From the NCBI GenBank assembly GCA_027459825.1, contig DAIDGT010000003.1:1277-65276 (forward strand): a DNA stretch of 64,000 nt, read 5' to 3'. Shown here in pieces: positions 26,064 through 64,000 of the stretch. Source of the stretch: a bacterium (GTDB lineage: Bacteria > Patescibacteriota > Dojkabacteria > JAKAPS01 > JAJZLI01). Under the pieces are notes generated by a model that did not search any database, was not told where the DNA came from, and worked only from the letters and a program-made list of their open reading frames with translations. The position numbers and the translations under genes were made by a program. The first letter of the stretch is position 1. Each line of letters opens with the position of its first letter.

Positions 26064-26921
26064 ATGGTTGGTATTGTATTTATTGTTTTAATATATTCGC
26101 TAGGTCTTGGAATTGTTCATGGTATTACACCTGATGAGCATACATGGCCTATTACTTTTAGTTACGCTATTGGATCTTTTAGTGCAAAAAAAGGTTTTTA
26201 TGTAGGATTTCTTTTTTCCCTTGCTTTTGCTATTCAGCGCGCAATTGCATCTGAAATAGCTTATTTTGCTCTGATAAAGTGGTCTGATATAGCTTACTTA
26301 AACTATTATTTGTATATTGTGATTGGCCTTATCATGCTTTTTACGGGAATGTATGTTTTAAGGTTTAATAGGATTTTTCACATAGAGATTTTGCCTGCAT
26401 CGTGGATTGGTAAAAAGGATAGGCATGAAATTGATACAGATCCTAGAACCCCTACGCCTAAAATGGCCCTTCTTCATGGTTTTATTGCTGGATGGGGGTT
26501 CGGTTCTTTCGCTTTAATACTTTATACTGTCCTTGTTCCTAGGATGCCTAGTTTCTACTTGGCTTTTCTTCCTGGACTTTTCTTTGGAATAGGTACTATG
26601 TTGGTTCAGGCAGCATTCGGATATATTTTTGGTAGATGGATTAGAAGTATGAAAATATCCGAAAAACAGGGATTGAGACTTGCATCTATCGTTTCTGGAG
26701 ATACATTATTTGGAGGAGGAATTGTCTTTATACTTGGAGGACTTCTTGGTCTTATATTCCCAAATATTGCAAATCTTGCAATAATAACCCCAATTAATGT
26801 TGGAAATTTAAATGAGCTTGGTCTTGCTTTTGTAATGGTTGTAGCTACAGTGCTATTTATTGGTCTTGGTTCTATGTTTTATCACGTACATAAACTTCAG
26901 GAGGAATATGGCAAAAAATAA
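26064..26921 (+). CDS. polytopic membrane protein with an N-terminal HGITPDEHTWP motif (possible metal transporter)
   Basis: 285 aa, about 6-7 TM helices. The His/Asp/Glu-rich motif in TM1 hints at cation binding. Family not recognised with certainty. Confidence 0.45.
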   Translation: MVGIVFIVLIYSLGLGIVHGITPDEHTWPITFSYAIGSFSAKKGFYVGFLFSLAFAIQRAIASEIAYFALIKWSDIAYLNYYLYIVIGLIMLFTGMYVLRFNRIFHIEILPASWIGKKDRHEIDTDPRTPTPKMALLHGFIAGWGFGSFALILYTVLVPRMPSFYLAFLPGLFFGIGTMLVQAAFGYIFGRWIRSMKISEKQGLRLASIVSGDTLFGGGIVFILGGLLGLIFPNIANLAIITPINVGNLNELGLAFVMVVATVLFIGLGSMFYHVHKLQEEYGKK

Positions 26922-27870
26922 CTTATTTTCTTTTTCGAAGAAAGACTTGGATTTTTATTCAGATAAGATTTGTTCTCTTATTGACTCTTGGAAAATGGAT
27001 GATTCAACTTTTAAGATTTCTGATATAGCCAATAATAGTTCTTCTCAAAATATTCTTGGGTTTGGTGGATCTCATGTTTATTATTCACAGGTTGATAACC
27101 TGCAGATTTTAAAAAGTCTTGATCTGTATGCATACTCTGATTATTTTAAAGATTCTATCGCAGTAGGTTTTGAAAATGGTTTCCTTGAAAAAAATATGAA
27201 ATCTTTGAATGTTATATTTTCCTTTCCATCAAAATCTACAAGAATAGATAAGGATAGTGTAGATGAAATTTATAATGGAGTTTATGTAAAAACGCTTCCT
27301 TTTGAACAGAAAGAATTTTCTGTTACAGGTAAATTAAAAAAATATTTTGATCAAAATACCAAATTTAAAATTTTTAATGATACTCCTGCTGTCAATTTTT
27401 TTAATATATTTAAGAATAAAAAAAGTGATTTATATCTAGGTGTCGTTTCCGGTACAGGGATTAATATTTCATGTACTATTGATGGAAAAATTATAAATAC
27501 AGAATTTGGGGGAAGAGACATATTTGATAAAAATGAATATGATATCCTAATTGATAAGGAAAGTATTAATCCGAACCTTGAGTGTACTGAAAAATTGGCA
27601 TCATATCCCTTCTTGCAAAAAATGCATACAAAATACAATATACCTATGGATGTTTTAGTTAAAAGATCTGCTGGGGTTATTGCATCAGGTGTGATTGGAT
27701 TTATAAAGTATACAAAAGCTAAGAGTATTAGTGTTTGTTTCCAAGGATCTTTTGTTTGTAAAGATGATAACTATTTTAAATATATTTCTGATTTTATTGA
27801 TAGTACAGAATACAAAGTTTCTATTTTAAGGGAAAATAAGGCAGACATACTAGGAGCTTCTTTAGTTTAA
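26908..27870 (+). CDS. hexokinase-family sugar kinase (divergent)
   Basis: NVIFSFPSKS and LGVVSGTGINISC...INTEFGG parallel the hexokinase LGFTFSFP and G.I.GTG.N..Y...N.E.G motifs. The start is uncertain: ATG 26908 follows AGGAGG but with short spacing, and the track starts at 26860. Confidence 0.5.
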   Translation: MAKNNLFSFSKKDLDFYSDKICSLIDSWKMDDSTFKISDIANNSSSQNILGFGGSHVYYSQVDNLQILKSLDLYAYSDYFKDSIAVGFENGFLEKNMKSLNVIFSFPSKSTRIDKDSVDEIYNGVYVKTLPFEQKEFSVTGKLKKYFDQNTKFKIFNDTPAVNFFNIFKNKKSDLYLGVVSGTGINISCTIDGKIINTEFGGRDIFDKNEYDILIDKESINPNLECTEKLASYPFLQKMHTKYNIPMDVLVKRSAGVIASGVIGFIKYTKAKSISVCFQGSFVCKDDNYFKYISDFIDSTEYKVSILRENKADILGASLV

Positions 27871-28199
27871 ACCTTTATCTCATCAATCTTTGAAGCAAGT
27901 ATAAAATCATTCATTGATAGCCCTCCTATTGCATGTGTATACAATTTGATTTTTACTTTATTCCATTCAAATAGGAGTATATCAGGATGATGTCCTTCTT
28001 CTTCTGCAATTTTTGCAATCTTATTTATAAAATCAATTGCAGATATGAAATCTTTGAACTTGTAATGTTTATATATTTTAATATAGTCTTTGCTCTTCCA
28101 TCCAGATAGAATCTGAAGATATTTCTCTGTTTCTGACTTAGATAGAGGCTCTTCTCCTCCTTCACATGGTTTACATTTCTGTAAAGATAGCTCTTTCAT
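27867..28199 (-). CDS. phhB: pterin-4a-carbinolamine dehydratase
   Basis: EEEGHHPDILLFEWNKVKIKLYTHAIGGLSMNDFILASKID is the PCD/DCoH signature. Confidence 0.85.
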   Translation of the reverse strand: MKELSLQKCKPCEGGEEPLSKSETEKYLQILSGWKSKDYIKIYKHYKFKDFISAIDFINKIAKIAEEEGHHPDILLFEWNKVKIKLYTHAIGGLSMNDFILASKIDEIKV

Positions 28200-39266: not shown

Positions 39267-39548
39267 TTATTTTAATTTATTCAAAATGTAGTGCTTCAAT
39301 TGGGTCAAGTTTAGTGCTCTTCTTGCCGGGTAGAGACCCGCTATCATTCCAACAAGAGTTGTTCCTATGATAATACTTAGTATAAGCCAGAGAGGCATAG
39401 CAAGTATATTCCTGCTTCCTATTGGTCCTGTAATGGCAAGGAATTCTTCTTGCTGCACTTTTAAATCCACATTATCCAGTGCATTAAGAATTTCATCACC
39501 CAGTTTGTATGTTTTAGTAATTCCAGAAAGATTAATGACATTAGTCAT
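39267..39548 (-). pseudogene. in-frame deletion remnant of a MacB/LolD-type ABC transporter (ATPase N-terminus fused to the last FtsX helix)
   Basis: Residues 1-45, MTNVINLSGITKTYKLGDEILNALDNVDLKVQQEEFLAITGPIGS, stop inside Walker A. Residues 46-93, ...LVGMIAGLYPARRALNLTQL..., match the FtsX/MacB C-terminal helix and GlyPArrAa motif. Confidence 0.55.
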
Positions 39549-42535: not shown

Positions 42536-43354
42536 AGGATGTAAAAATTTATAACATGTTGTTATATTTTAGTCAATGTTTTAGGTATTTTAGTACTACA
42601 GAAATCTCTAAATATCAACATTTATAATATCAAAAAATGGACACACTGACGATATAGGAACTAATACAGAAAATGCGATAAGAAATAATATTGTAAGTAT
42701 AGTTAGAAAGCGATGGGAGATAGAGGTATTTCACAAAGAGCTCAAACAAACCTGTGGTTTGAAATGCTGCCAGGACTGAACAAGTCAGGCACAAAGAAAT
42801 CATATAGTACTTATCTGTATCAAGCAAGCCGTCCAACAAAAGTGGAACAATATATCCTTTTATCAACAACAGTGGAATACTATAACTGGATCCATTGTAT
42901 TTCAGATGAAAATTGAGTTAAATGACATGTAAGTGTGAAACTTGTTGATCAATGGTATTGTGTGTTTTATGTACTGTGGTTACTTATATACGTAGTTCTT
43001 CTGTAGGTAATAGTGCAAGTCATCATGTTGCATTCAATTCAACTTCTCAGTTAACAAATAAGTCTAAGCAAGTTCATAATAGTGTGAGTGCTACTACTCC
43101 CCAAAACCAACAAGTAAGTCAGCAGCCACCAATAGAAAATAACAATATTACTCTACCTAAATCACCACAGATTAGTTCTGTACCACAACCCATAAATAAT
43201 CCTCAACCTCCAGTGCCTTCTGAGTTATTTCTATTTTTAGACTTTTTTAAGAATTTTTGTAGTAAAAGACAAGAAAGTAGTAAATTTCGAACTAACAAAA
43301 GAGGCGTTGCCATTTGTTAATTTGAAAGAATCTGTTCTGGTAAGTCCTAAACAA

Positions 43355-43426
43355 CTCCCCGACTAGGATTCGAACCTAGAACCTTCTCGTTAACAGCGAG
43401 CCGCTCTACCGTTGAGCTATCGAGGA
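43355..43426 (-). tRNA. tRNA-Asn (anticodon GTT)
   Basis: Hand-folded cloverleaf. Acceptor TCCTCGA/TCGGGGA (one G-U pair), D arm GCTC-AACGGTA-GAGC, anticodon loop CTGTTAA, T arm CTAGG-TTCGAAT-CCTAG, discriminator G. No encoded CCA. Confidence 0.9.
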
Positions 43427-43462
43427 ATATGTAGAATATTGCCAATTATATCGTCTAAACTC

Positions 43463-44725
43463 TTATATTTCAATAATGGCTTTAGTCCATTTATTTTCTC
43501 TGCTTGTAATTGTTAAATCTCCTCCCAAAAGTCGCATAAAATTTAGAGAAAGGTAAAGTCCTAGTCCTGAGCCTTTATGATTTTCATTATTTGAAAATTT
43601 GTAATACTTTTCGAATAAGTGAGCTTTGTCCTGTTCTGGTATCCCTATTCCATGATCTTTTATCTTTATAAAATATCTTCCTTGTTTTTTATACAATGAT
43701 ATAAAAATGGTGGAATTGGGTTTTGAAAATTCTATGGCATTATCAAGTAGGTTTGATATGACATTTGCTATTTTATCTGGGTCTGTTGTTACTACACTTT
43801 GTTCCTCTTTAGGTTTAAATGTAATATTAATATTTTTCTTTGTAGCTTTTAATATGCTTTTCCCAACACTCTTATAAATTTGTAAATTTAAATTTGTATC
43901 TGTTTTGCTTACAAACAGCCTGTTTAAGTCTAATCTTGAAGTGTTTAGTATATCTTCGATGAAATTTCCTAGAGTATTTGATTGATTGCGTATATCTTGT
44001 ATTGCATCAATAATTTCTCTTGGAAGTTTTAAATACCCCTCATCTAGTGTTAAAAGTTCGAGATATCCTCTTAGGGCTGTAATGGGAGATCTTAGCTCAT
44101 GTGATGTTATTGATATAAATTCATCTCTTTGTTTATTAATATTTTCAAATTTCTCTTTCTTTTCTCTTTCAATATTATATTTTTCATTCACACCTTTAAC
44201 TATGATTATTAGTTTCCTTGATTCTATTGTTATTGTTATTAGCACAAACAAATCTATCATAAACATCCCAATAGTAAATGAAGAATATGCGTGGTGTAGA
44301 AGTATAAATAGAATTTCAGATGCTATTATAATAAGATTTGCTCCAATAAGATTGAAGTTTGTTGCATTTATATTAATAATTATACTTTCAAATAATAGTA
44401 CAAAGTTAATTACAAAGAATGGACTTTGTGGTCCTCCTGTAAGGTAAGATATACTAACAGATATAAGTATTAAAAAAATTATTTCTATTATATTTTTAAT
44501 ATGACTTTTTTTTCTTATTACATAATGAGTTATTACTATCTGGATTAATAATGTGGCTAGAATTATGAATATGTACTCTTGGAATAATGTTGGATATGCT
44601 ATGCGTATATTAGTTATTATATAAGATAACCCTAATGATGCTAAAAGTATAATCGATGTATATTTTAGTATAATTGAGATACCTTCTATTCTTTCCTGTT
44701 CTACTATGTTTTGACTTATTTCCAT
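43463..44725 (-). CDS. membrane sensor histidine kinase (canonical H-box)
   Basis: Polytopic N-terminus. H-box FISITSHELRSPITAL (His codon 44099..44101), N-box LLDNAIEFS, G1 DHGIGIP, G2 GSGLGLYL. Confidence 0.85.
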   Translation of the reverse strand: MEISQNIVEQERIEGISIILKYTSIILLASLGLSYIITNIRIAYPTLFQEYIFIILATLLIQIVITHYVIRKKSHIKNIIEIIFLILISVSISYLTGGPQSPFFVINFVLLFESIIININATNFNLIGANLIIIASEILFILLHHAYSSFTIGMFMIDLFVLITITIESRKLIIIVKGVNEKYNIEREKKEKFENINKQRDEFISITSHELRSPITALRGYLELLTLDEGYLKLPREIIDAIQDIRNQSNTLGNFIEDILNTSRLDLNRLFVSKTDTNLNLQIYKSVGKSILKATKKNINITFKPKEEQSVVTTDPDKIANVISNLLDNAIEFSKPNSTIFISLYKKQGRYFIKIKDHGIGIPEQDKAHLFEKYYKFSNNENHKGSGLGLYLSLNFMRLLGGDLTITSRENKWTKAIIEI

Positions 44726-45987
44726 TTTAATATTTCTACTGTTACAGAAGTTCCAATACCTTCTGTGCTTTCAATCTTAATTGTTCCTCCCATTTTTTCA
44801 ACATATTCTTTGATTAAATAAAGTCCTTGTCCTGTTCCCTGTGATGTATTTGAAGCAACATTTGATGCTCTATAGTACTTTTGGAAAAGTTTGGATATAT
44901 CCTTTGATGGTATTCCTATACCATTATCTGAGACTACAATACTTACAGTATCTTCAGTATCTCTTTCTTCAAGTATAACCCTACCATTGTTATTCGTATA
45001 CTTTACCGCATTATCTAGTATATTTCTAAGCACCTCTTCTATTCTATTTTTATCAGCTTTTATTTCTATATTTTGGCTTTTTATGTATGATATTGAAATA
45101 TTTTTTTCTTTTGCTTTTAGTTCTATATATGATAGAGCATCATTTATAATTTCTGATAGATTCAATTTTTCAATTTTAAATTCTACATTTTCAATGTCGG
45201 TATTTGCATTCTGAAGCATATTCACAGAGAGATTTTTTAAAAGCATTGCATTAGTATTTGCCTTTGTTAAAACTTGCTGCATGTTTGTGTTTAATTTGTC
45301 ATGGTATTTTTGTAATACTTGGTTAATACTATCTTGTAATTTGGTTATAGGTTCCTGTAATTTTTCTGTTGACACTTTTAAAAATTCATTTTTTGACCTG
45401 TTTATATCTTCATTTTTTAACTTGATTGCCATCTCTTTTTCATACTGCAGAGATATTTTCTTATATATCTGTGAAAAGAAAAGTATTATGACTATAGCAA
45501 GGAGAGCTATTGTCCATAAAGAGACTTCCGTAGCTGATCTAAAATATACAGAATTATACTTAGGATCAAAATACAGATATACCATTTGGGCAAAGATGAC
45601 AAAAAAGTATAGTAGTAGCTCCCATGATGCTCTTGCCACTAAAACAAGGGTAAACCCCATAAGAGCATCTATTGGAAAAACTGGGTTATATACTCCGTTT
45701 GAGAATATCATTAATGCAAACATCCAGAAGAGGAATATAAATCCAGCAATTATTATTTTGTAGTGTATTGATTTTATTTTAACTATGTATATCCAAATTA
45801 TTGTGAATACACTAATTGATGTACAGTATATGACAGTAAATATTGTATGTTTTACATATATGCTACCGAATATTCCACTAAGAAGTACTATTAAATAAAA
45901 TAGTGATCCAATGTATACCGTTGTTCCAATAATTTTTAAAAATGATTTATCATCACTTTGATTTAAATAAGTATTTGTATCTTGCAT
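44716..45987 (-). CDS. histidine-kinase-like membrane protein lacking the phospho-acceptor His (Thr at the H position)
   Basis: DHp-like FLKVSTEKLQEPITKL, with Thr codon 45367..45369 where His is expected. Intact N-box ILDNAVKYT, G1 DNGIGIP, F LFQKYYR, G2 GTGQGLYL. 10-nt overlap with the downstream canonical kinase. Confidence 0.75.
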   Translation of the reverse strand: MQDTNTYLNQSDDKSFLKIIGTTVYIGSLFYLIVLLSGIFGSIYVKHTIFTVIYCTSISVFTIIWIYIVKIKSIHYKIIIAGFIFLFWMFALMIFSNGVYNPVFPIDALMGFTLVLVARASWELLLYFFVIFAQMVYLYFDPKYNSVYFRSATEVSLWTIALLAIVIILFFSQIYKKISLQYEKEMAIKLKNEDINRSKNEFLKVSTEKLQEPITKLQDSINQVLQKYHDKLNTNMQQVLTKANTNAMLLKNLSVNMLQNANTDIENVEFKIEKLNLSEIINDALSYIELKAKEKNISISYIKSQNIEIKADKNRIEEVLRNILDNAVKYTNNNGRVILEERDTEDTVSIVVSDNGIGIPSKDISKLFQKYYRASNVASNTSQGTGQGLYLIKEYVEKMGGTIKIESTEGIGTSVTVEILKWK

Positions 45988-46073
45988 ACATTACTATTCT
46001 ATTTACTTTTTTATATTTTATCAATTAAATTTCATACTATAATTTTTATATTATTTGTTGTATAGAGTAGATA

Positions 46074-46967
46074 ATGGATAGTAACGATATTATGAAAAAG
46101 TATCTTAAAAGAATTGAAAGATTCTTTGATACTGAGAAAATAATTAATGAAAATATATCTTTAGAGTATATAACGAATTATTATCGTTCTAGTATATTGG
46201 CGTATAAGGTTTTACATACATTTAGAGGTTATATGCACATGGGGATCTCATTTGATGGTAAATACAAAGTTTCAGATTTACTTACATCAGTTAAGATTGT
46301 AGAGGAGTACATTAATAGTAGAAAGATTTCTCGTGTTTTAGAGCTTGCTTCAGGTAACGGTGTGAATAGTTCATATATTGCCTCACGAAACCCAGGGTTA
46401 GATATCATTGGTATTGATCTTTCTACAAATCCTAAAAAAAATGTAAACGGATATAGACATATAAATGGAGATTTTCATAATCTTAGTGTATTTCCAGATA
46501 AATCGTTTGATTTAATTTTTATTATAGAGGCTTTTTGTCATAGCCAGAATAAAGAGAAAGTGTTAGAGCAATGCTTCAATAAATTAAAGAAACATGGTTT
46601 GTTTGTTATCTTCGATGGATATTCCAGGAAGAGTAAATTATCTGATAAAGATATGAAAACCTCAGCTTTAATTTCAAAGTCAATGGCAGTAGACAGATTT
46701 ATAAGTTTAAAAGAGTTTAAAACTCTTGTAAAAGAATTTAATTTTAAAATAATTGAGGAGAAGGATTTTTCTTTAAATGTTTTGCCTAATGCTGAGAGAT
46801 TTAGGAAAATATCTAATGTATATTTTTCATCATATCTTTTCCATAAGGTGTTAACTAAAATTTTTCCAATGATTGAACTACAAAATTTAATAGCTTTAAA
46901 TCTATTATCTTTGTCGGTTAAGAATAATCTCCTTTGTTATTACATGCATGTTCTTGAAAAGAATTAA
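46074..46967 (+). CDS. class I SAM-dependent methyltransferase
   Basis: Motif I VLELASGNGVNS, post-I IGIDLS, motif II/III DLIFIIEAFCH...GLFVIFD. Confidence 0.75.
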   Translation: MDSNDIMKKYLKRIERFFDTEKIINENISLEYITNYYRSSILAYKVLHTFRGYMHMGISFDGKYKVSDLLTSVKIVEEYINSRKISRVLELASGNGVNSSYIASRNPGLDIIGIDLSTNPKKNVNGYRHINGDFHNLSVFPDKSFDLIFIIEAFCHSQNKEKVLEQCFNKLKKHGLFVIFDGYSRKSKLSDKDMKTSALISKSMAVDRFISLKEFKTLVKEFNFKIIEEKDFSLNVLPNAERFRKISNVYFSSYLFHKVLTKIFPMIELQNLIALNLLSLSVKNNLLCYYMHVLEKN

Positions 46968-48202
46968 ATTGTTACTGTGGCTGTAGTTCCTTCATTCTCC
47001 TTGCTATCAATCTTTAACTCTCCTCCTATAAGATTTATGAAATTTAGTGATAAATAAAGCCCAAGTCCATCATCTGTATTTTGAGTATTATTGGATACTC
47101 TATAGAATTTTTCAAAAATGTGGGGTAGATCTTTTTCAGGGATTCCAATACCATGATCTATTACCTTTACTGTATGTATATTTCCTTCTTTTTGTACAGA
47201 TATTTTTATATTTCCTCCTTCATTTGAAAATTTGATAGCGTTATCTACTAGATTAAATAAGACTTCATATAATTTATCTGGGTCTGTATTGACCTTTGTT
47301 TCTTCTGTATTTTTTTCTACTTCTATATTTACATTTCTATCTATTTTCTGTTTATTTAATTGATTTACTACCTTGTATATTACTTGCTCTATATCTGTTG
47401 GAGTCTTATTAATAACAAGTCGTTTAAGCTCTATTCTTGATATGTTGAGAATATTCTCTATTAGTCTGTTTAATCTATCTGTTTCATTTGAGAGTATTGC
47501 AAGATCATCTTTAGTATCTTTTGGTAATGTTTCAAAATCCTTTTCTAGTGTTAATATTTGCAAGTATCCTCTAAGGGCTGTAATAGGTGATCGTAGTTCA
47601 TGTGATGCCATGGATATGAATTCATCTTTTTGGATATTTTCCTTTTCAATCTTTTGTGTTTCTGCTTTTGCAACCAAGTAATTTTTTTCTACTCTCGATG
47701 ATAAATTAAATCTTGTTTTGGAGACAAATACTATTGATATCTGTGCTACGACTTCGACAGAAAAGATAATCCAGTCTACGCTACTGTGTGGCATAAGGAG
47801 TATGTGTATAATCCCTTCTGTAATGATTATCATATTTAAAATTACTGGAATTATATAGTTTTTATCTATGATTAGTTCTTCAAATAGAAGTCCTAAGTAT
47901 AGAAGAAAGAAAGGGCTTTCAACACCTCCTGTTGTGTATATTACAGGGGTAATAATAATTGTGTCTATTACAACCTCTAATATACTTATTGATAAAGAAG
48001 TTTTTTTTATCCAGTAGTGAAATATTAATATTACAGACAGTATAAGAATAGTACTTATAGAATCTATATATATAGTAGGTTTTGTCTGTGCATACTGCAT
48101 GAAAGGTGGTATGAATGTGAGAAGTAAACCTAACGCAATTAAATAATTTAAAAATTTTATTGCACTAGCTATATTCTTGTTTTTTTCTAATTCTATTTCC
48201 AT
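46964..48202 (-). CDS. membrane sensor histidine kinase (canonical H-box)
   Basis: H-box FISMASHELRSPITAL (His codon 47600..47602), N-box LVDNAIKFS, G1 DHGIGIP, G2 DDGLGLYL. Clear paralogue of 43463..44725. Confidence 0.85.
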   Translation of the reverse strand: MEIELEKNKNIASAIKFLNYLIALGLLLTFIPPFMQYAQTKPTIYIDSISTILILSVILIFHYWIKKTSLSISILEVVIDTIIITPVIYTTGGVESPFFLLYLGLLFEELIIDKNYIIPVILNMIIITEGIIHILLMPHSSVDWIIFSVEVVAQISIVFVSKTRFNLSSRVEKNYLVAKAETQKIEKENIQKDEFISMASHELRSPITALRGYLQILTLEKDFETLPKDTKDDLAILSNETDRLNRLIENILNISRIELKRLVINKTPTDIEQVIYKVVNQLNKQKIDRNVNIEVEKNTEETKVNTDPDKLYEVLFNLVDNAIKFSNEGGNIKISVQKEGNIHTVKVIDHGIGIPEKDLPHIFEKFYRVSNNTQNTDDGLGLYLSLNFINLIGGELKIDSKENEGTTATVTI

Positions 48203-48203
48203 T

Positions 48204-49457
48204 TTATCCCTTCTGAAGTGAAAATATTACGCTTGTTCCTTTTTCGTATTCACTCTCTATGTGTATGTCTCCTCCCATTTTTTCTATATATTGTTTTACA
48301 AGATATAGTCCAAGACCATATCCCTGTTTTGTATTTGAGGCAACATTTGATGCTCTATAGAATTCTTCAAATATATGAGGAATATCCTGTTTAGGGATTC
48401 CAATACCATTATCTGATACATTGATAATAATCATTTTTTCTTTTTCATGTGTTGAAATTTGAATACTTCCTTCTGAATTGGTGTATTTTATTGCGTTATC
48501 AATTAGGTTTCTGATAACTTCTGAAATTTTACCTTTGTCTGCTCTAATAAAAACGTTATCCTCTACGTTTATTATAATGTTAATTTTTTTCTCAGATGCT
48601 TTAATGGATAACATCTCAGCAGTTTGTGTTATTAAATTTTTTAAATTTAGACTTTCTATATTAAACGGCTGGTTTTCAAGGTTAGATATATTAAGAAGAT
48701 TTTCTGAAAGTTCTTTTAATATTTGAGAGTTTCGTATAGTTTTATCTAATATATCCTTTATGTTTCCTGATATATGTTGATTATTCTTTTCTTTCGTTGC
48801 TATTATTTTATCTTGTAGTTGAGATATTGGGGATTTTAATTTCTTTGAAGCTATGTCTATAAAATTATCTTTTGCTTTTTTCAGTTCCTCATTTTTATTT
48901 TTTTCTTCTTGTTCTTTTTCAAACGTATTTGATAGAGTTTTATATGCTTTTGAATATTGGTATCCTACTGTTCCTATAAAAATTATAGATATAAAAGAAA
49001 TTGTTCCTATGTATAGGTTATAACTGCTACTGAATTTTGGGTTCAAAAGTATCAGTGTATAAAGTAGGGCAATGTACAGGGTATAGAAAATGAAATTTTG
49101 AATACTCTCAAGTCTTGAGAATGCAGCAAGGACAAGTAATACTATCATAGAAAGAAGGCCATTCTCAATTCCTGTTGTTATGTACATAAAAAGAAATGTT
49201 GCTGTAGTTATAACTAAGAAGTCTAGAGATATTTTAAATGATATTGATGTTTTCTTAAAAAAATTATGCCATATAATTTCATAGATTATTAAAAAGAGTG
49301 GTAGGTATGTATTTGCAGTTATGTTTTTTGTATATATACTTCCTGCTGCAGGAATATGAAATATTATGATGACTAGAATAAATATTGGGTAGGATATCCT
49401 CTCCATTGACTTTAGTAGCACATTATCTCTGTTTGCTTCTGCATCATATCCCTTCAC
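48204..49457 (-). CDS. histidine-kinase-like membrane protein lacking the phospho-acceptor His (Lys at the H position)
   Basis: DHp-like FIDIASKKLKSPISQL, with Lys codon 48843..48845 where His is expected. Intact N-box LIDNAIKYT, G1 DNGIGIP, F IFEEFYR, G2 GYGLGLYL. Its stop lies 1 nt from the start of the downstream canonical kinase. Confidence 0.75.
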   Translation of the reverse strand: MKGYDAEANRDNVLLKSMERISYPIFILVIIIFHIPAAGSIYTKNITANTYLPLFLIIYEIIWHNFFKKTSISFKISLDFLVITTATFLFMYITTGIENGLLSMIVLLVLAAFSRLESIQNFIFYTLYIALLYTLILLNPKFSSSYNLYIGTISFISIIFIGTVGYQYSKAYKTLSNTFEKEQEEKNKNEELKKAKDNFIDIASKKLKSPISQLQDKIIATKEKNNQHISGNIKDILDKTIRNSQILKELSENLLNISNLENQPFNIESLNLKNLITQTAEMLSIKASEKKINIIINVEDNVFIRADKGKISEVIRNLIDNAIKYTNSEGSIQISTHEKEKMIIINVSDNGIGIPKQDIPHIFEEFYRASNVASNTKQGYGLGLYLVKQYIEKMGGDIHIESEYEKGTSVIFSLQKG

Positions 49458-49487: not shown

Positions 49488-50603
49488 TTAAAATTGTGCT
49501 TTGTGTATTTTATAGATTACCTTTAGTATTGTGTGAATATCCTCAGTTGTATTCTCATGTGAAAAGCTAAATCTTATAGATCTTTTTGCATCATCATCTG
49601 TCATTCCTATGGCCTTTAGGGTATGTGATGGTTCTATTGATAGTGCTGTACATGCAGAGCCCGCTGATGCTTCTATTCCCTCTCTATCTAAATTAATGAG
49701 AAGAGTTTCTGCAAGAATATCTTTAAAATATATGTTTGATATATCTGGTAATTTTTCCTCTGCTCCATTGATTCGTGATCCTGGAATTTGGGAGAGTATT
49801 TCTTTCTCGAATTCAGATTGTAAATTTTTGACGTATTTGTATCTTTCTTCTCTTTCATTTTTTAGTATTTCTACTGCTTTTGCAAAGCCTACAATTAGGG
49901 CAGTACTCTCAGTTCCTCCTCTCATTTTGTATTCTTGCTCTCCTCCTGTAATCATAGGTTTTATCTGTGTCTGTCTCTTTATGTATAGTGCTCCAATTCC
50001 CTTTGGGCCATGTATTTTATGAGATCCAAATGTAATTAAATCTGCATCTGTTTCCATGATATTTTCATATTTAAATGATTGCATAGCATCTGTGTGGACA
50101 GGAATACCTTTCTCGTGCGCTATTTGAGATATTGCTTTTATATCTTGCAGAGTTCCTATTTCTGAGTTTGCATGTATTATTGATATAAGCACTGTATCAT
50201 CTCTTATATTATTTTTTACATCTTCTGTGGAAATGTGTCCCATGCTGTCAGGATCTATATAGGTAATGTGTCTATTTTCAGATATTTCTGATATTGGTTT
50301 TAAGATAGAGTCATGTTCAATAGCTGATGTTATTACGTGACCTTTATTTTTTAATGTCATACCTTTAATTGCAAGGTTGTTACTTTCAGTACCGCCTGAT
50401 GTAAATACTATCTCTTGAATGTCACAGCCTATGTATGATGCAATACACTCCCTCGATCTATCAATAGCTCTTCTTGATCTTTGCCCCATGGAGTGTATTG
50501 AGCTTGGATTTGCAAATGTCTCCTTGAGATATGGCATCATCTCATCCAATACTCTTGGGTCTATTTTTGTTGTTGCTGCATTATCTGCATATATATATTT
50601 CAT
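49488..50603 (-). CDS. cysteine desulfurase (NifS/IscS-like class V aminotransferase)
   Basis: IYADNAATT, FTSGGTESNN, HANSEIG, and the PLP-Lys motif SHKIHGPKGIGALY. I prefer the Met of MKYIYADNAATT to the track start at 50657. Confidence 0.85.
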   Translation of the reverse strand: MKYIYADNAATTKIDPRVLDEMMPYLKETFANPSSIHSMGQRSRRAIDRSRECIASYIGCDIQEIVFTSGGTESNNLAIKGMTLKNKGHVITSAIEHDSILKPISEISENRHITYIDPDSMGHISTEDVKNNIRDDTVLISIIHANSEIGTLQDIKAISQIAHEKGIPVHTDAMQSFKYENIMETDADLITFGSHKIHGPKGIGALYIKRQTQIKPMITGGEQEYKMRGGTESTALIVGFAKAVEILKNEREERYKYVKNLQSEFEKEILSQIPGSRINGAEEKLPDISNIYFKDILAETLLINLDREGIEASAGSACTALSIEPSHTLKAIGMTDDDAKRSIRFSFSHENTTEDIHTILKVIYKIHKAQF

Positions 50604-50674
50604 TGTGTCTATCTTAAAAACTTTATTTTTACAAGATAATATTATATCATTATACATATTGATATAAGTATTTT

Positions 50675-60284: not shown

Positions 60285-60378
60285 AATATGACCAATATAT
60301 TACCCTTTATATCAATATATTTCAATAATTTTTTTGTATATTGCAAACATTTTATATAATGATTAATATAAATAAGGT

Positions 60379-63300
60379 ATGTTATTTATTCGCAGATACT
60401 TTATATATATCATGTTATTTGTTTCTCTGAGTGGAGGTATACTTTTTATACATAAAATTCTAGGATCTAATAATACTAATTTGTATTCTAAGGTATCAAG
60501 CAGTGATATAAATCTTAAGGGAGCTAATGGGACAAATACATACAATGGGATAGTGACAGTAAATGGTACGTTAAAGACGAATAATACTAATACCAACATC
60601 ATACAGTTTACCCCGATTAATGCGCCGACAAATCCAAAAGTAGGGGAGGAGTATTTTGATAAGAGCAATGATACATTGTATATATACAGAGGAGGAACGA
60701 TAGGATGGTCATCTCAGATAGGTACTAATGGAACAAATGGTAAGACTGGAGCTACAGGGGCACAAGGTACACAAGGGATACAAGGGGTACAAGGGGTAAC
60801 AGGAGCTCAAGGTGTACAAGGATTGCAAGGTGCGCAAGGTGCAACAGGTCCACAGGGACCTCAAGGTCCATCAGGAGCGTCTTTGTCTGGTAATTTTGTA
60901 GAATTATCACCTTCTTCATCACAGACAGGTAATATATCAATAACAGGAAATGTGACAGCGTCTGGAGTTAGTAATATAGGTGGGTCTATAAATTTAGGAT
61001 CAGATGTGAATCTTGCAGACAGTAGTGAGTCAGTAAACATAGTAGGAGCAACAACAAATTTAATAAATAATCCATCATTTGAAAAAGATGGTAATGGAGC
61101 AACAACAGTAACAGGATATACTAAGGTGGGTACACCTACGACATACATAACAGATAATACAAAAGCATTGTATGGGACATATTCCATGGATATTGTTACA
61201 AATAATTCTAATCAAGGAATAGAGCAGACGGTAACAGGATTATCATATAATACAAAATACAGTGCCTCAGCATATGTGTACATAGTATCAGGAGGAGCGT
61301 ATCTTACAAGTGTCACAACAAACATAAAAAGCAGTACAGATACAACAGTAGGTTCATGGGAGAGAGTAACCCTATCATTTACGACAGGTTCATCCCAGAC
61401 ACAAGAGACACTCGAGATAATAGGATCAACTGGAAGTGATAGTTTCTATACAGATGGGTGGCAACTAGAGGTTGGTGCAGTTGCAACTCCATATACAGAT
61501 GGATCCTTAGGAGCGGGATATGCGTGGGGAACATCCTCAATGGCAGCAATGGGAACAATAACATTGGCATCCACATCTCCAACAGGAGGAACACTGAATG
61601 GAGGAACATACTATTATGAAGTGACAGCAGTAACCTCCGGAGGAGAAAGTACACCGTCTAATGAGATAACAGTGACAACTCCGACACTATCATCTCCAAG
61701 TGGAGTAAGCGCAGTAGCATCATCTACAGGAGGAAATATTGGATCTGGGGTTACTAATTATTACCAGGTAAGCGCATATGATGGTAATGGGGAGACAACA
61801 GTGTCCTCTGAGGTAAGTGCCACTACAGGATCAGGAAGTACGAATAGTGTAACGATATCTTGGAATGCAGTATCAGGAGCGACAGGATATTATGTATACA
61901 AGGGTACTACATCGGGAGGAGAGAATGAGAGGATATCTACTACATCTACTTCGTATACTGATGTAGGGGTTCTTACTGGTGTTCAGACATGGAGTACTAC
62001 AACAGCACTTCCTCAATCTACAGCTTATTACGGATCTTATGCATATGCAACTTCGGTTGAATACAACGGATATGTATATGAAATTGGTGGAGATAATGGA
62101 TCCTCATCTTTGTCGACAGTCTACTATGCACTAATTAATAGTAATGGGACGGTTGGTTCCTGGAACACTACAACTTCTCTACCATCAGGAATATATAATG
62201 CATCATCAGTTGAATATAATGGATATATTTATGAGATTGGTGGGGATAATAGTGGTTGGTTATCAACAGTTTATTATACATTAATTAATAGTAATGGAAC
62301 TGTTGGTTCCTGGAGTACTACAACTTCATTACCTCAATCGATAGCATATGCAACCAGTGTAGAATATAATGGGTACATTTATGAGATTGGTGGATATAAT
62401 GGTAGTCCTTTATCAACAGTATACTATGCTCCCATAAATAGTAATGGAACTGTTGGTTCCTGGAGTACCACAACTTCTTTACCTATAGGAGATGAAGGTG
62501 CAGGAATAGCTGAGTATGGTGGATATATCTATGTAATAGGTGGTGATACAGGGTCATGGTCAGTAACAGTCTATTATACATTAATTAATAGTAATGGGAC
62601 TGTTGGCACTTGGAATACTACAACTAATTTGCCTCAAAATAGAACCTTTGCATCTTCTTTATCATATAATGGATATGTTTATGTCATTGGAGGATTTTCT
62701 AGTGGTAATTCTGTAACAACAGTGTACTATGCACAACTAGGAGGTAATCCATTCTCATCATCAACAGAACCTTCAAACAATAGCGCAACAACTAATACAA
62801 ATACAGCAACTCTCTCATGGAATACATACTCTGGTGCTACTTCATATAAGGTATATCGTGGTACATACTCAGGTGGGGAGAATACTTACTATTCAACAAA
62901 CTCTACCTCTTTTACTGACACAGGTTCTACAGGTACATCAGGTACTCCCCCTACATCAGCAATTATTACAACTAACCCTAATGGAGCAAACTCCACAAGA
63001 TCTGCGGGAGTTGAATTTGGAAATAGTAATAGCACTTCAATTGGTCTTACCATTGCCGCATCTGGAGCAATCACTTCTTCATCCTCTGCCACCTTTACTG
63101 GTAATATTACAGCCGCAAACGGAACATTTTCTGGTCCTCTCATTGGTGGTAGTGGAAACAGTACTAATACTGCCTCTTCAATATGTGTAGTATCATGTGC
63201 CTTTGGTTTATCATCAGATAATAATAATTTGTATCTTATGAATAATACCTCAGGTAATTTCATAATAAGGTCAGAACAAGGTACTAGTACATGGAAGGAT

Positions 63301-64000
63301 ATTGCATCTGTAGATGATAATGGTAATGCAATATTTGCAGGAACTGTAACAGCATCAGGAACACCAGCAGATGTTGCTGAAGATATACCAGACAATAGTG
63401 GTATTGTAGCTGGCAATATCGTGTCAGAATCAAATCCTAATACATCGTTAAACAGCGTAGACAACTTTACTACAGTACTAACAGATACCCCTTATGATAC
63501 AAATATGCTAGGAGTGATCTCTTCAAATCCTGGAATAATATTGCATCAAGAGTCTAATATGATACCACTTGCACTTGCAGGAAGAGTACTTGTCAATGTA
63601 ACAAATGTCAATGGTCAAATTAATACAGGGGATATGATAACCGGGTCTAGTATAGCAGGATACGGAGAGTTAGCAACAGAACCAGGAGAAGTTGTAGGAG
63701 TTGCTCTCAATTCTCTAACTAGCAGTACACCAGGAGTATCTACATTTACAGAAAATGGAAATACTTACCTTAAAGGAGAGATACTGATGATGGTAGAAAG
63801 AGAATACTACAATCCTGTAACAGATTTTTCCAATATACTATCAGATGTAGTGCTATCAGATAGTGTATTGAATATATCAAGTAACGTATCAATAGCAGGT
63901 AATCTTTCAGTTGAAGGCATAATATCGACAAATTATGCGGGAAATGTAGAGGTACCAGAAGGAGTCAGTAGTTATACAATAACATTTGCAAAAGCATTAT
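60379..64000 (+). CDS. giant membrane-anchored surface protein, 3' end beyond the window (collagen-like + jelly-roll/CBM-like + FN3-like + 5 Kelch-like repeats + tail-fibre-like region)
   Basis: This ORF is not in the supplied track. I read all 1,207 frame-1 codons from ATG 60379 (preceded by in-frame TAA 60373..60375) to base 64000 and found no stop. The N-terminus is a signal anchor, MLFIRRYFIYIMLFVSLSGGILFI. Domain-like segments are visible in the translation. Confidence 0.85.
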   Translation, partial: MLFIRRYFIYIMLFVSLSGGILFIHKILGSNNTNLYSKVSSSDINLKGANGTNTYNGIVTVNGTLKTNNTNTNIIQFTPINAPTNPKVGEEYFDKSNDTLYIYRGGTIGWSSQIGTNGTNGKTGATGAQGTQGIQGVQGVTGAQGVQGLQGAQGATGPQGPQGPSGASLSGNFVELSPSSSQTGNISITGNVTASGVSNIGGSINLGSDVNLADSSESVNIVGATTNLINNPSFEKDGNGATTVTGYTKVGTPTTYITDNTKALYGTYSMDIVTNNSNQGIEQTVTGLSYNTKYSASAYVYIVSGGAYLTSVTTNIKSSTDTTVGSWERVTLSFTTGSSQTQETLEIIGSTGSDSFYTDGWQLEVGAVATPYTDGSLGAGYAWGTSSMAAMGTITLASTSPTGGTLNGGTYYYEVTAVTSGGESTPSNEITVTTPTLSSPSGVSAVASSTGGNIGSGVTNYYQVSAYDGNGETTVSSEVSATTGSGSTNSVTISWNAVSGATGYYVYKGTTSGGENERISTTSTSYTDVGVLTGVQTWSTTTALPQSTAYYGSYAYATSVEYNGYVYEIGGDNGSSSLSTVYYALINSNGTVGSWNTTTSLPSGIYNASSVEYNGYIYEIGGDNSGWLSTVYYTLINSNGTVGSWSTTTSLPQSIAYATSVEYNGYIYEIGGYNGSPLSTVYYAPINSNGTVGSWSTTTSLPIGDEGAGIAEYGGYIYVIGGDTGSWSVTVYYTLINSNGTVGTWNTTTNLPQNRTFASSLSYNGYVYVIGGFSSGNSVTTVYYAQLGGNPFSSSTEPSNNSATTNTNTATLSWNTYSGATSYKVYRGTYSGGENTYYSTNSTSFTDTGSTGTSGTPPTSAIITTNPNGANSTRSAGVEFGNSNSTSIGLTIAASGAITSSSSATFTGNITAANGTFSGPLIGGSGNSTNTASSICVVSCAFGLSSDNNNLYLMNNTSGNFIIRSEQGTSTWKDIASVDDNGNAIFAGTVTASGTPADVAEDIPDNSGIVAGNIVSESNPNTSLNSVDNFTTVLTDTPYDTNMLGVISSNPGIILHQESNMIPLALAGRVLVNVTNVNGQINTGDMITGSSIAGYGELATEPGEVVGVALNSLTSSTPGVSTFTENGNTYLKGEILMMVEREYYNPVTDFSNILSDVVLSDSVLNISSNVSIAGNLSVEGIISTNYAGNVEVPEGVSSYTITFAKAL
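60721..60882 (+). repeat. collagen-like Gly-X-Y run, 18 triplets
   Basis: GTN GTN GKT GAT GAQ GTQ GIQ GVQ GVT GAQ GVQ GLQ GAQ GAT GPQ GPQ GPS GAS, read directly from frame 1. Confidence 0.9.
61990..62745 (+). repeat. five tandem ~49-aa Kelch-like repeats
   Basis: The unit W(S/N)TTT.LP......(V/A)EYNGY(I/V)YEIGG.......TVYY.LINSNGTVG occurs five times. The DNA string ttaattaatagtaatgg.actgttgg recurs near 62131, 62281 and 62581. Confidence 0.8.

Follow-up and report, generated by a model that had tools for sequence, protein, structure and literature searches.

This study concerns a 64,000-nucleotide (nt) stretch, referred to below as the window, of contig DAIDGT010000003.1 from a metagenome-assembled genome (MAG) of the Dojkabacteria (Patescibacteria), with a GC content of about 30%; the best named matches of the TypA encoded in the window, at 63 to 64% identity, carry the label Patescibacteria group. 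It contains four open reading frames (ORFs) with a histidine kinase core and no others, all on the minus strand and arranged as two tight pairs, which we call A and B. The downstream gene of each pair (dnA and dnB) encodes a canonical kinase, and the upstream gene (upA and upB) encodes a paralog that lacks the phospho-acceptor histidine and retains an intact catalytic and ATP-binding (CA) domain. As argued below, we lean toward reading the two proteins of each pair as partners in an obligate heterodimer whose His-less subunit would supply the kinase activity in trans. The genes, their junctions, and the residues found in place of the acceptor are as follows.

48204..49457, minus strand: upB, 417 amino acids, GTG start, His-less paralog with a polytopic N terminus, a degenerate domain for dimerization and for histidine phosphotransfer (DHp), and an intact CA domain (HATPase_c, 48213..48539)
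46964..48202, minus strand: dnB, 412 amino acids, canonical partner (HisKA, 47429..47632; His201, 47600..47602; HATPase_c, 46967..47287)
48202..48204, minus strand: junction B, with the upB stop codon TAA, one spacer base (A), and the dnB start codon ATG
44716..45987, minus strand: upA, 423 amino acids, His-less paralog with six N-terminal helices and an intact CA domain (HATPase_c, 44731..45054)
43463..44725, minus strand: dnA, 420 amino acids, canonical partner (HisKA, 43928..44131; His209, 44099..44101; HATPase_c, 43469..43783)
44716..44725, minus strand: junction A, a 10-nt overlap in which upA ends and dnA begins, ATGGAAATAA
45364..45366, minus strand: Glu208 of upA (codon GAA), the residue aligned with the acceptor His
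48843..48845, minus strand: Lys205 of upB (codon AAG), the residue at the phospho-acceptor column

The ORF listing agrees with the strands and lengths given for all four genes in an earlier, sequence-only reading of this DNA, and both junctions, the overlap in pair A and the 1-nt gap in pair B, are read directly from the sequence as that reading had them. The overlap of junction A is kept in a relative with 88 to 90% identity, while the dnB start codon is preceded, within the end of upB, by the purine-rich stretch GAAGGGA. In a four-way alignment, upA and upB are 37% identical, dnA and dnB are 41% identical, and the up and dn proteins are about 25% identical to each other. A scan for promoters and terminators returned no more sites than in shuffled sequence and is given no weight.

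The AlphaFold2 model of upA (mean pLDDT, 69; 80 to 90 in the cytoplasmic part) has six N-terminal helices, the sixth of which is continuous with DHp helix 1; helices 147-209/211-227 and 234-261 form a canonical DHp hairpin, and an alpha/beta CA domain follows. Its best Foldseek matches are HK853 and WalK/YycG, with DivL also among the matches. Neither Pfam nor the model shows a PAS domain, a HAMP domain, or a large extracytoplasmic domain in upA. The dn proteins match Pfam HisKA (PF00512), and the best matches are HK853, VicK, and WalK. The dn proteins also keep a GGxxSPF membrane signature, as in PilS-like kinases, that is degenerate in the up proteins. Scores against 6TM_PilS (PF25323) were 21.7 bits for dnB and 17.2 bits for the dn protein of a related locus described below (L044), both below the cut-off of 27.

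Pfam detects HATPase_c in all four window kinases (82 to 108 bits) and HisKA only in dnA and dnB. The acceptor column was anchored on an invariant Phe six residues before the acceptor and an invariant Pro five residues after it, and sequences were aligned with MAFFT and, independently, with phmmer against the solved VicK and HK853. The column holds His in dnA (H209) and dnB (H201) and a different residue in upA and upB, and phmmer places Lys205 of upB opposite the acceptor His of both VicK and HK853. The next residue, normally a catalytic Glu, is Lys in both upA and upB. The central claim of the sequence-only reading, that the upstream proteins have lost the acceptor His, is thus borne out by the Pfam result and by both alignments, in which a His at the true acceptor position was looked for and not found. 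Its choice of Lys205 in upB was correct, whereas its choice of Thr207 (45367..45369) in upA was off by one: the motif that it gave, STEKLQEPITKL, exceeds SHELRSPITAL by one residue, and it is Glu208 that aligns with the acceptor. The His is missing from about 0.9% of HisKA domains in the literature (PMC12632262), a value matched by the background set used here, with 1 of 116. In the window two of the four kinases lack it, each at the same position within its pair, and chance is excluded.

Within the background itself, one unrelated metagenome kinase (L091:2063-4699) has Asn at the acceptor column (LEAISNDLSNPIT) and is a candidate pseudo-histidine kinase. At two other loci (L101:3-3434 and L112:854-4906), only 4 nt separate the gene for a hybrid kinase, which has a receiver domain, from a second ORF behind it that matches the kinase core and is unaligned over the H box.

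To find relatives of the up proteins, 1.84 billion representative proteins were searched exhaustively with a profile. Only a handful are full length, and all of these lack the His: the acceptor residue is K in P0121, T in P0124, Q in P0125 and P0339, and S in P0126 (with a His at +1), and a more distant group of 430-residue His-less proteins (P0215, P0271, and P0272) has K. The genomic surroundings of all these relatives were retrieved. Word-indexed protein searches with upA or a family profile returned almost only generic kinases and missed the true relatives; a scan of genome contigs with poorly chosen peptide patterns found one of them, L001. A scan of metagenome contigs yielded 80 generic kinase loci and no family member, and these loci were reused as background for His, motif, and receiver frequencies. 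One high-scoring match, P0123 (2,017 residues), was rejected as an unrelated multi-kinase hybrid with normal His residues. For P0269 the contig was too short to cover the genomic context.

The His-less up gene is kept in at least five lineages that are less than 50% identical, and it adjoins a canonical partner in every lineage found, with junctions ranging from an 11-nt overlap to a 3-nt gap; tandem kinase pairs are rare in about 110 unrelated background kinase loci. Four sets of loci (L034-36, L038/39, L040/41, and L042/43) share one gene order, in which MltG, RuvX, AlaRS, and a DUF4870 membrane protein come first, followed by the NifS-like gene and then by two kinase genes, the His-less one and one with HisKA and HATPase_c, which are separated by +3, -11, -8, and +1 nt, respectively. 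This is also the synteny of window pair B. L042/43 resembles the window further in having a methyltransferase gene and pair A as well. The distant group has a different neighbor: in L037, GltX is followed by a His-less kinase and a canonical kinase that overlap by 11 nt. GltX also precedes a kinase pair in L044/45, where both proteins carry the His (L044:6001-8544; ISHELKLPVT and IAHELRGPIT) and the genes are 3 nt apart, a pair that plausibly represents the ancestral state of the L037-type module, before the loss. The survey of related genomes proposed in the sequence-only reading thus finds the pairing of a His-less gene with a canonical one recurring in further lineages, and the upstream gene is neither absent nor pseudogenized in any lineage found.

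In one MAG (JAJYWX01; L036:7258-8520), the canonical partner lacks 1 nt at nt 879 when compared with L034 and is thereby split into 296 and 52 residues, while the His-less gene is intact; either a faulty assembly or a genuine frameshift may account for this.

The family alignment also bears on whether the up proteins still accept phosphate elsewhere, on a nearby His or on a Thr or Ser beside the acceptor column. The L040 up protein does have a His at acceptor +1, and upB and its close ortholog keep a His about 26 residues downstream of the column. The sequence-only reading was right that upA and upB both have such a downstream His, but these residues are not conserved: QKYHDKL of upA is QKYPDKL in the ortholog with 88 to 90% identity, and no His column is invariant among the up proteins of five lineages. 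The acceptor column itself holds E, K, Q, T, S, or K across the family, so that no alternative acceptor chemistry is selected, and the acid at H+1 is lost not only in upA and upB but also in the His-less proteins of the GltX-linked group. We therefore regard an alternative acceptor as very improbable.

The His-less genes are clearly under selection. Relative to a genome of JAJZLI01 that is about 88% identical at the protein level (loci L001 and L042; dS of about 0.6 to 0.75), dN/dS was 0.08 for upA, 0.079 for dnA, 0.093 for upB, and 0.103 for dnB, compared with 0.107 for AlaRS and 0.124 for the NifS-like gene. Over the DHp domain alone it was about 0.05 in upA and 0.02 to 0.03 in dnA. Because the values for upA and upB, 0.08 to 0.09, are as low as those of housekeeping genes, these sequences argue that the His-less genes are functional and not decaying. 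That they might instead be functionless duplicates would fit their status as paralogs with a degenerate H box in which Pfam no longer detects HisKA. It is, however, scarcely credible in view of this constraint at a dS of about 0.7, of reading frames that are intact in every lineage found, and of a CA domain that is 49% identical across lineages that are only 30 to 36% identical overall.

As used in PMC12632262, which cites Collins and Childers, the term pseudo-histidine kinase denotes a protein whose kinase architecture is recognizable but which is missing one or more core activities and is retained under selection. The up proteins belong to this class: their His is absent, their dN/dS is 0.08 to 0.09, and they are kept in at least five lineages. 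Set against the features of a functional class I HisKA kinase, they have the CA boxes and the DHp-CA fold and lack the H-box His and an adjacent regulator.

The kinase motifs are unevenly distributed between the two proteins of a pair. Measured against 115 ordinary kinases, the up proteins of 7/7 lineages have the consensus residue at all positions of the N, G1, F, and G2 boxes, so the earlier statement that these boxes are kept in the upstream proteins holds throughout. HATPase_c scores are higher in the up than in the dn protein in 6/6 pairs (91 to 113 versus 65 to 96 bits), as listed here.

Window pair A: up, 96.7 bits; dn, 81.7 bits
Window pair B: up, 108.1 bits; dn, 94.1 bits
L034: up, 91.3 bits; dn, 65.0 bits
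L038: up, 113.1 bits; dn, 69.1 bits
L040: up, 99.3 bits; dn, 74.6 bits
L044: up, 107.7 bits; dn, 96.0 bits

The dn proteins have one to four deviations each in their CA motifs, and their ATP lid is shorter. At the first Gly of the G2 box, a position with Gly in 90% of background kinases, five of the six dn proteins have D, K, R, K, or S (Asp in dnB); the L034 dn protein has in addition a G1 Gly-to-Ala and a second G2 Gly-to-Val substitution, the N-box Lys is replaced by Glu in dnA and the L038 dn protein, and the F-box Arg is lost in three dn proteins. The DHp domain has the opposite polarity. Mean identity across five lineages is 33% for DHp helix 1 of the up proteins, the least conserved of their cytoplasmic parts, versus 73% for that of the dn proteins, while the CA domains are similar in this respect (49% in up, 47% in dn). 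The dn proteins retain the His, the Glu at +1, and the Ser/Thr at +4, that is, the E-x-x-S/T kinase/phosphatase motif; upA (K..I) and upB (K..S) have lost the E/D-x-x-T/N phosphatase motif. The erosion is thus reciprocal at the level of the motifs, in that the up protein has lost the His yet keeps its CA domain, and the dn protein keeps its H-box helix and drifts in the ATP-lid motifs. To our minds this reciprocity is the new observation of this analysis.

Because of this reciprocal erosion, the idea of a heterodimer with trans-phosphorylation gains indirect support, and we consider it somewhat more probable than the other explanations taken together. For a specific heterodimer, the unbroken adjacency of the two genes and the congruence of the up and dn trees likewise count as indirect evidence. 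The two proteins would be produced together from their overlapping or abutting frames and would join through their DHp hairpins into an asymmetric heterodimer, in which the CA domain of the up subunit would phosphorylate, in trans, the single His, located on the dn subunit. The latter, probably the signal-sensing subunit, would then hand the phosphoryl group on to an unlinked response regulator.

The same data bear on a regulatory role, in which the up protein would be a pseudokinase of the DivL or RetS type that modulates a dn homodimer without phosphoryl transfer. It would then act through contact between the DHp domains, through its membrane domain, or as a scaffold, and ATP binding would serve only as a conformational switch. 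Regulators that have kept the kinase fold are documented, namely DivL (PMC4211667), RetS, which disrupts GacS dimers (PMC8498467), and PsmA (PMC12963549); DivL also turns up when the up protein is matched by sequence and by fold, and the dn CA domain is recognizable and under selection, so that dn could be a self-sufficient kinase. On the other hand, the presence of every ATP-binding and catalytic motif at consensus in 7/7 lineages goes beyond what a conformational role usually needs, the ATP-lid motifs of the dn proteins erode, most of all in L034, and DHp helix 1, the surface with which a DivL-like protein would read a regulator, is only 33% conserved. Because the up CA domain is better preserved than that of its partner and the regulator-reading helix is the least conserved, we rank this alternative below the heterodimer and hold it to be rather unlikely, though it is the most serious of the rivals.

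Several observations weigh against the heterodimer. The dn CA domains are easily recognized even now (65 to 96 bits), retain the G1 Asp as well as the Mg-binding Asn, and evolve under purifying selection, and the G2 box of dnA in the window is intact; a dn protein may therefore autophosphorylate alone, as a homodimer. The His at acceptor +1 of the L040 up protein, mentioned above, belongs here as well. Furthermore, the sequence does not tell whether this kinase family phosphorylates in cis or in trans, and the erosion pattern is drawn from five or six lineages with common ancestry. Finally, a receiver hidden Markov model (HMM) found no receiver gene in the 13 family loci within 4 to 8 kb of the pairs.

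The same receiver HMM found 115 receivers in the roughly 112 unrelated kinase loci and none in the 64-kb window, in agreement with the earlier statement that the window has no receiver-domain gene. A weak CheY-like match at 27867..28199 was rejected, as it is a pterin-4a-carbinolamine dehydratase. Given the absence of receivers from the window and from the 13 family loci, the module looks like an orphan kinase pair whose regulator would be encoded elsewhere. The nearest canonical single-kinase outgroup, P0164 (L127:4001-5693), which has the same membrane architecture, is followed by a stand-alone receiver gene of 123 amino acids with an 8-nt overlap.

Neighbor-joining trees (Kimura distances, 300 bootstraps) place the NifS-linked up proteins in one clade (100%) and the dn proteins in another (100%), and the two clades are sisters (98%). 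Most simply, such a topology would reflect one duplication and one loss of the His, with the replacing residue drifting later. Instead of joining upB and dnB, the proteins upA and dnA are both placed with pairs from other genomes (85% and 92%), and groupings of upA with upB or of dnA with dnB receive at most 9% support. This indicates that both pairs are old and that each has stayed together as a unit through inheritance, duplication, or transfer; the duplication that gave rise to pairs A and B is accordingly not a recent one. Branching is congruent between up and dn proteins, that is, the partners co-diverge, so the tree check proposed earlier, pair duplication versus convergent loss, favors inheritance as a unit within this group. 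The GltX-linked His-less proteins, by contrast, never join the NifS-linked ones (0 to 3%), which suggests a second, independent loss of the His, although the tree is distance-based and has long branches.

The ancestral syntenic site, next to the NifS-like gene, is that of pair B, yet it is pair A, with both of its members, that groups with the syntenic pairs of L034, L038, and L040. This mismatch between tree and synteny could be due to an old duplication with differential loss, to transfer, or to faster evolution of pair B.

The conserved pairing and the congruent trees also speak to the notion that the up protein works as a dedicated phosphatase or as an ATPase of its own, functionally unrelated to its neighbor and adjacent to it only through tandem duplication. 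The His is dispensable for the phosphatase activity of HisKA proteins (PMC12632262), and the tree does show the up and dn genes to be paralogs that arose by duplication. Still, the phosphatase motif is destroyed in both window up proteins, as described above, the helix with which the up protein would dock a regulator is unconserved, and the overlapping frames have stayed adjacent down to about 30 to 35% identity in at least five lineages, for which the trees are congruent. An unrelated function is therefore improbable, if slightly less so than an alternative acceptor.

The sequence-only reading knew of no coupled, duplicated pair of this kind. That statement is out of date, given that pseudo-histidine kinases are a recognized class (PMC12632262) and that FasB and FasC, tandem kinase-like proteins with six transmembrane (6-TM) segments from the fasBCAX locus of group A Streptococcus, interact with each other and not with themselves (PMC12675982, published in 2025). 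The DHp and HATPase parts of FasB and the TM and DHp parts of FasC suffice; His246 of FasC is required, and the FasC kinase domain is dispensable (PMC12675982). As in the pairs described here, two tandem, co-directional genes encode paralogous proteins with 6-TM, DHp, and HATPase parts. In Fas, the upstream protein gives the kinase domain and the downstream one the essential His and the sensing membrane domain; the sequences of our pairs have this polarity too, with an intact CA domain upstream and, downstream, a conserved His beside an eroded CA domain that may nevertheless be active. The differences are that FasB and FasC are of the AgrC/ComD-like type with an adjacent ComE/LytTR regulator, FasA, whereas the up and dn proteins are of the HisKA class with no adjacent receiver gene; that His residues (H241 and H284) persist in the DHp domain of FasB, whereas the up proteins are devoid of them at and around the acceptor site; and that the Fas proteins, from a Firmicute, have been tested experimentally, whereas the present pairs are known from the sequence of a Patescibacteria MAG. 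Judged by this comparison, the up/dn pair would be a functional analog of FasB/FasC and is not a member of the same family. Experimental proof of such a two-protein sensor comes so far from Streptococcus only.

A division of labor between polypeptides has further precedents. In Mycobacterium tuberculosis, ATP binding and catalysis reportedly reside on one of the proteins Rv0600c and Rv0601c, and the phosphorylatable His resides on the other. This Rv0600c/Rv0601c-TcrA system (PMC3544749) and CheA3/CheA4 of Rhodobacter (PMC3591291) are split histidine kinases. Like the heterodimer proposed here, CheA3 and CheA4 have catalysis and the phosphorylatable His on different polypeptides encoded nearby, although CheA proteins are of another kinase class. 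In the split kinases (CheA3/CheA4; HK1/HK2), however, each protein is without the domain of the other, whereas up and dn are both full length and appear split by point substitution. Dimers in which a non-substrate or noncatalytic subunit complements its partner are also known from CheA-short/CheA-long of Escherichia coli and from pseudokinase-kinase pairs of eukaryotes such as HER3-HER2. CheA-short is made from an internal start codon of the same gene, and both CheA and HER3-HER2 belong to other protein families.

DivL of Caulobacter (PMC4211667; PDB 4q20) resembles the up proteins in having a kinase fold without the acceptor His and in working with a true kinase. Its acceptor position is a Tyr, and it has PAS domains, whereas up has E, K, Q, T, or S and no PAS domain; it is neither encoded beside CckA nor a close paralog of it, whereas up adjoins the paralogous dn; and it senses a phosphorylated regulator via its DHp domain, a surface that is poorly conserved in up. 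RetS and GacS of Pseudomonas (PMC8498467), like the proposed pair, are two different sensor kinases that touch via their DHp domains. In that case, however, RetS inhibits GacS, both can homodimerize, their genes are unlinked, and they are hybrid or unorthodox kinases.

The two pairs have the following neighbors.

49488..50657, minus strand: NifS-like class-V aminotransferase gene (Pfam), directly upstream of upB and co-directional with it
46074..46967, plus strand: S-adenosylmethionine (SAM)-dependent methyltransferase gene, located between the pairs; it converges on dnB with a 4-nt overlap and diverges from upA across an 86-nt spacer

In three other lineages the NifS-like gene extends 8 to 17 nt into the start of the His-less gene, and the methyltransferase gene is found only where pair A also occurs. 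Synteny with the 88% identical relative (L042:13996-15820) breaks right after dnA, where the window continues with a tRNA-Asn gene (43354..43427) and then an MMPL transporter, and the relative has a 542-amino-acid gene and toxin-antitoxin genes instead. Elsewhere in the window, a single open frame of more than 1,208 codons, rich in Asn, Ser, Gly, and Thr, runs on the plus strand to the window end (60376..64000); it probably encodes a large surface protein, and the region has no Rfam match. A 93-amino-acid ORF (39267..39548, minus strand) consists of the N terminus of an ABC ATPase, with the Walker A region, fused to what is apparently the last helix of an FtsX/MacB-type permease, and may be a deletion remnant. 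A protein of 336 amino acids (26860..27870, plus strand) has a C-terminal Hexokinase_2 match as its sole match, which is unusual for a genome of the candidate phyla radiation (CPR).

Extending the argument to the whole family, we tentatively suggest, as an idea we would not yet call probable, that the standard sensor of this lineage is an obligate asymmetric heterodimer that arose by reciprocal loss after tandem duplication, one paralog losing the His and the other the integrity of its ATP lid. Since the NifS-linked and GltX-linked groups do not cluster, it would have evolved at least twice, with L044 as a two-His intermediate. Histidine kinases are treated as homodimers, and subunit symmetry and the choice between cis and trans phosphorylation are usually probed with engineered heterodimers; the up and dn proteins are both currently annotated simply as histidine kinases. 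If our reading is correct, the pairs would constitute a natural, sequence-legible case of duplication, degeneration, and complementation inside a homodimeric enzyme, in which trans-autophosphorylation has become obligatory, together with an evolutionary series that leads from two-His to one-His pairs. They would also offer a ready natural system for the study of asymmetric kinase dimers and of heterodimer specificity. As a second example, independent of FasBC, they would suggest that "three-component" sensors with divided labor are more widespread than annotation implies. The finding also bears on how sensors are built in genome-reduced CPR bacteria, which have very few signaling proteins.

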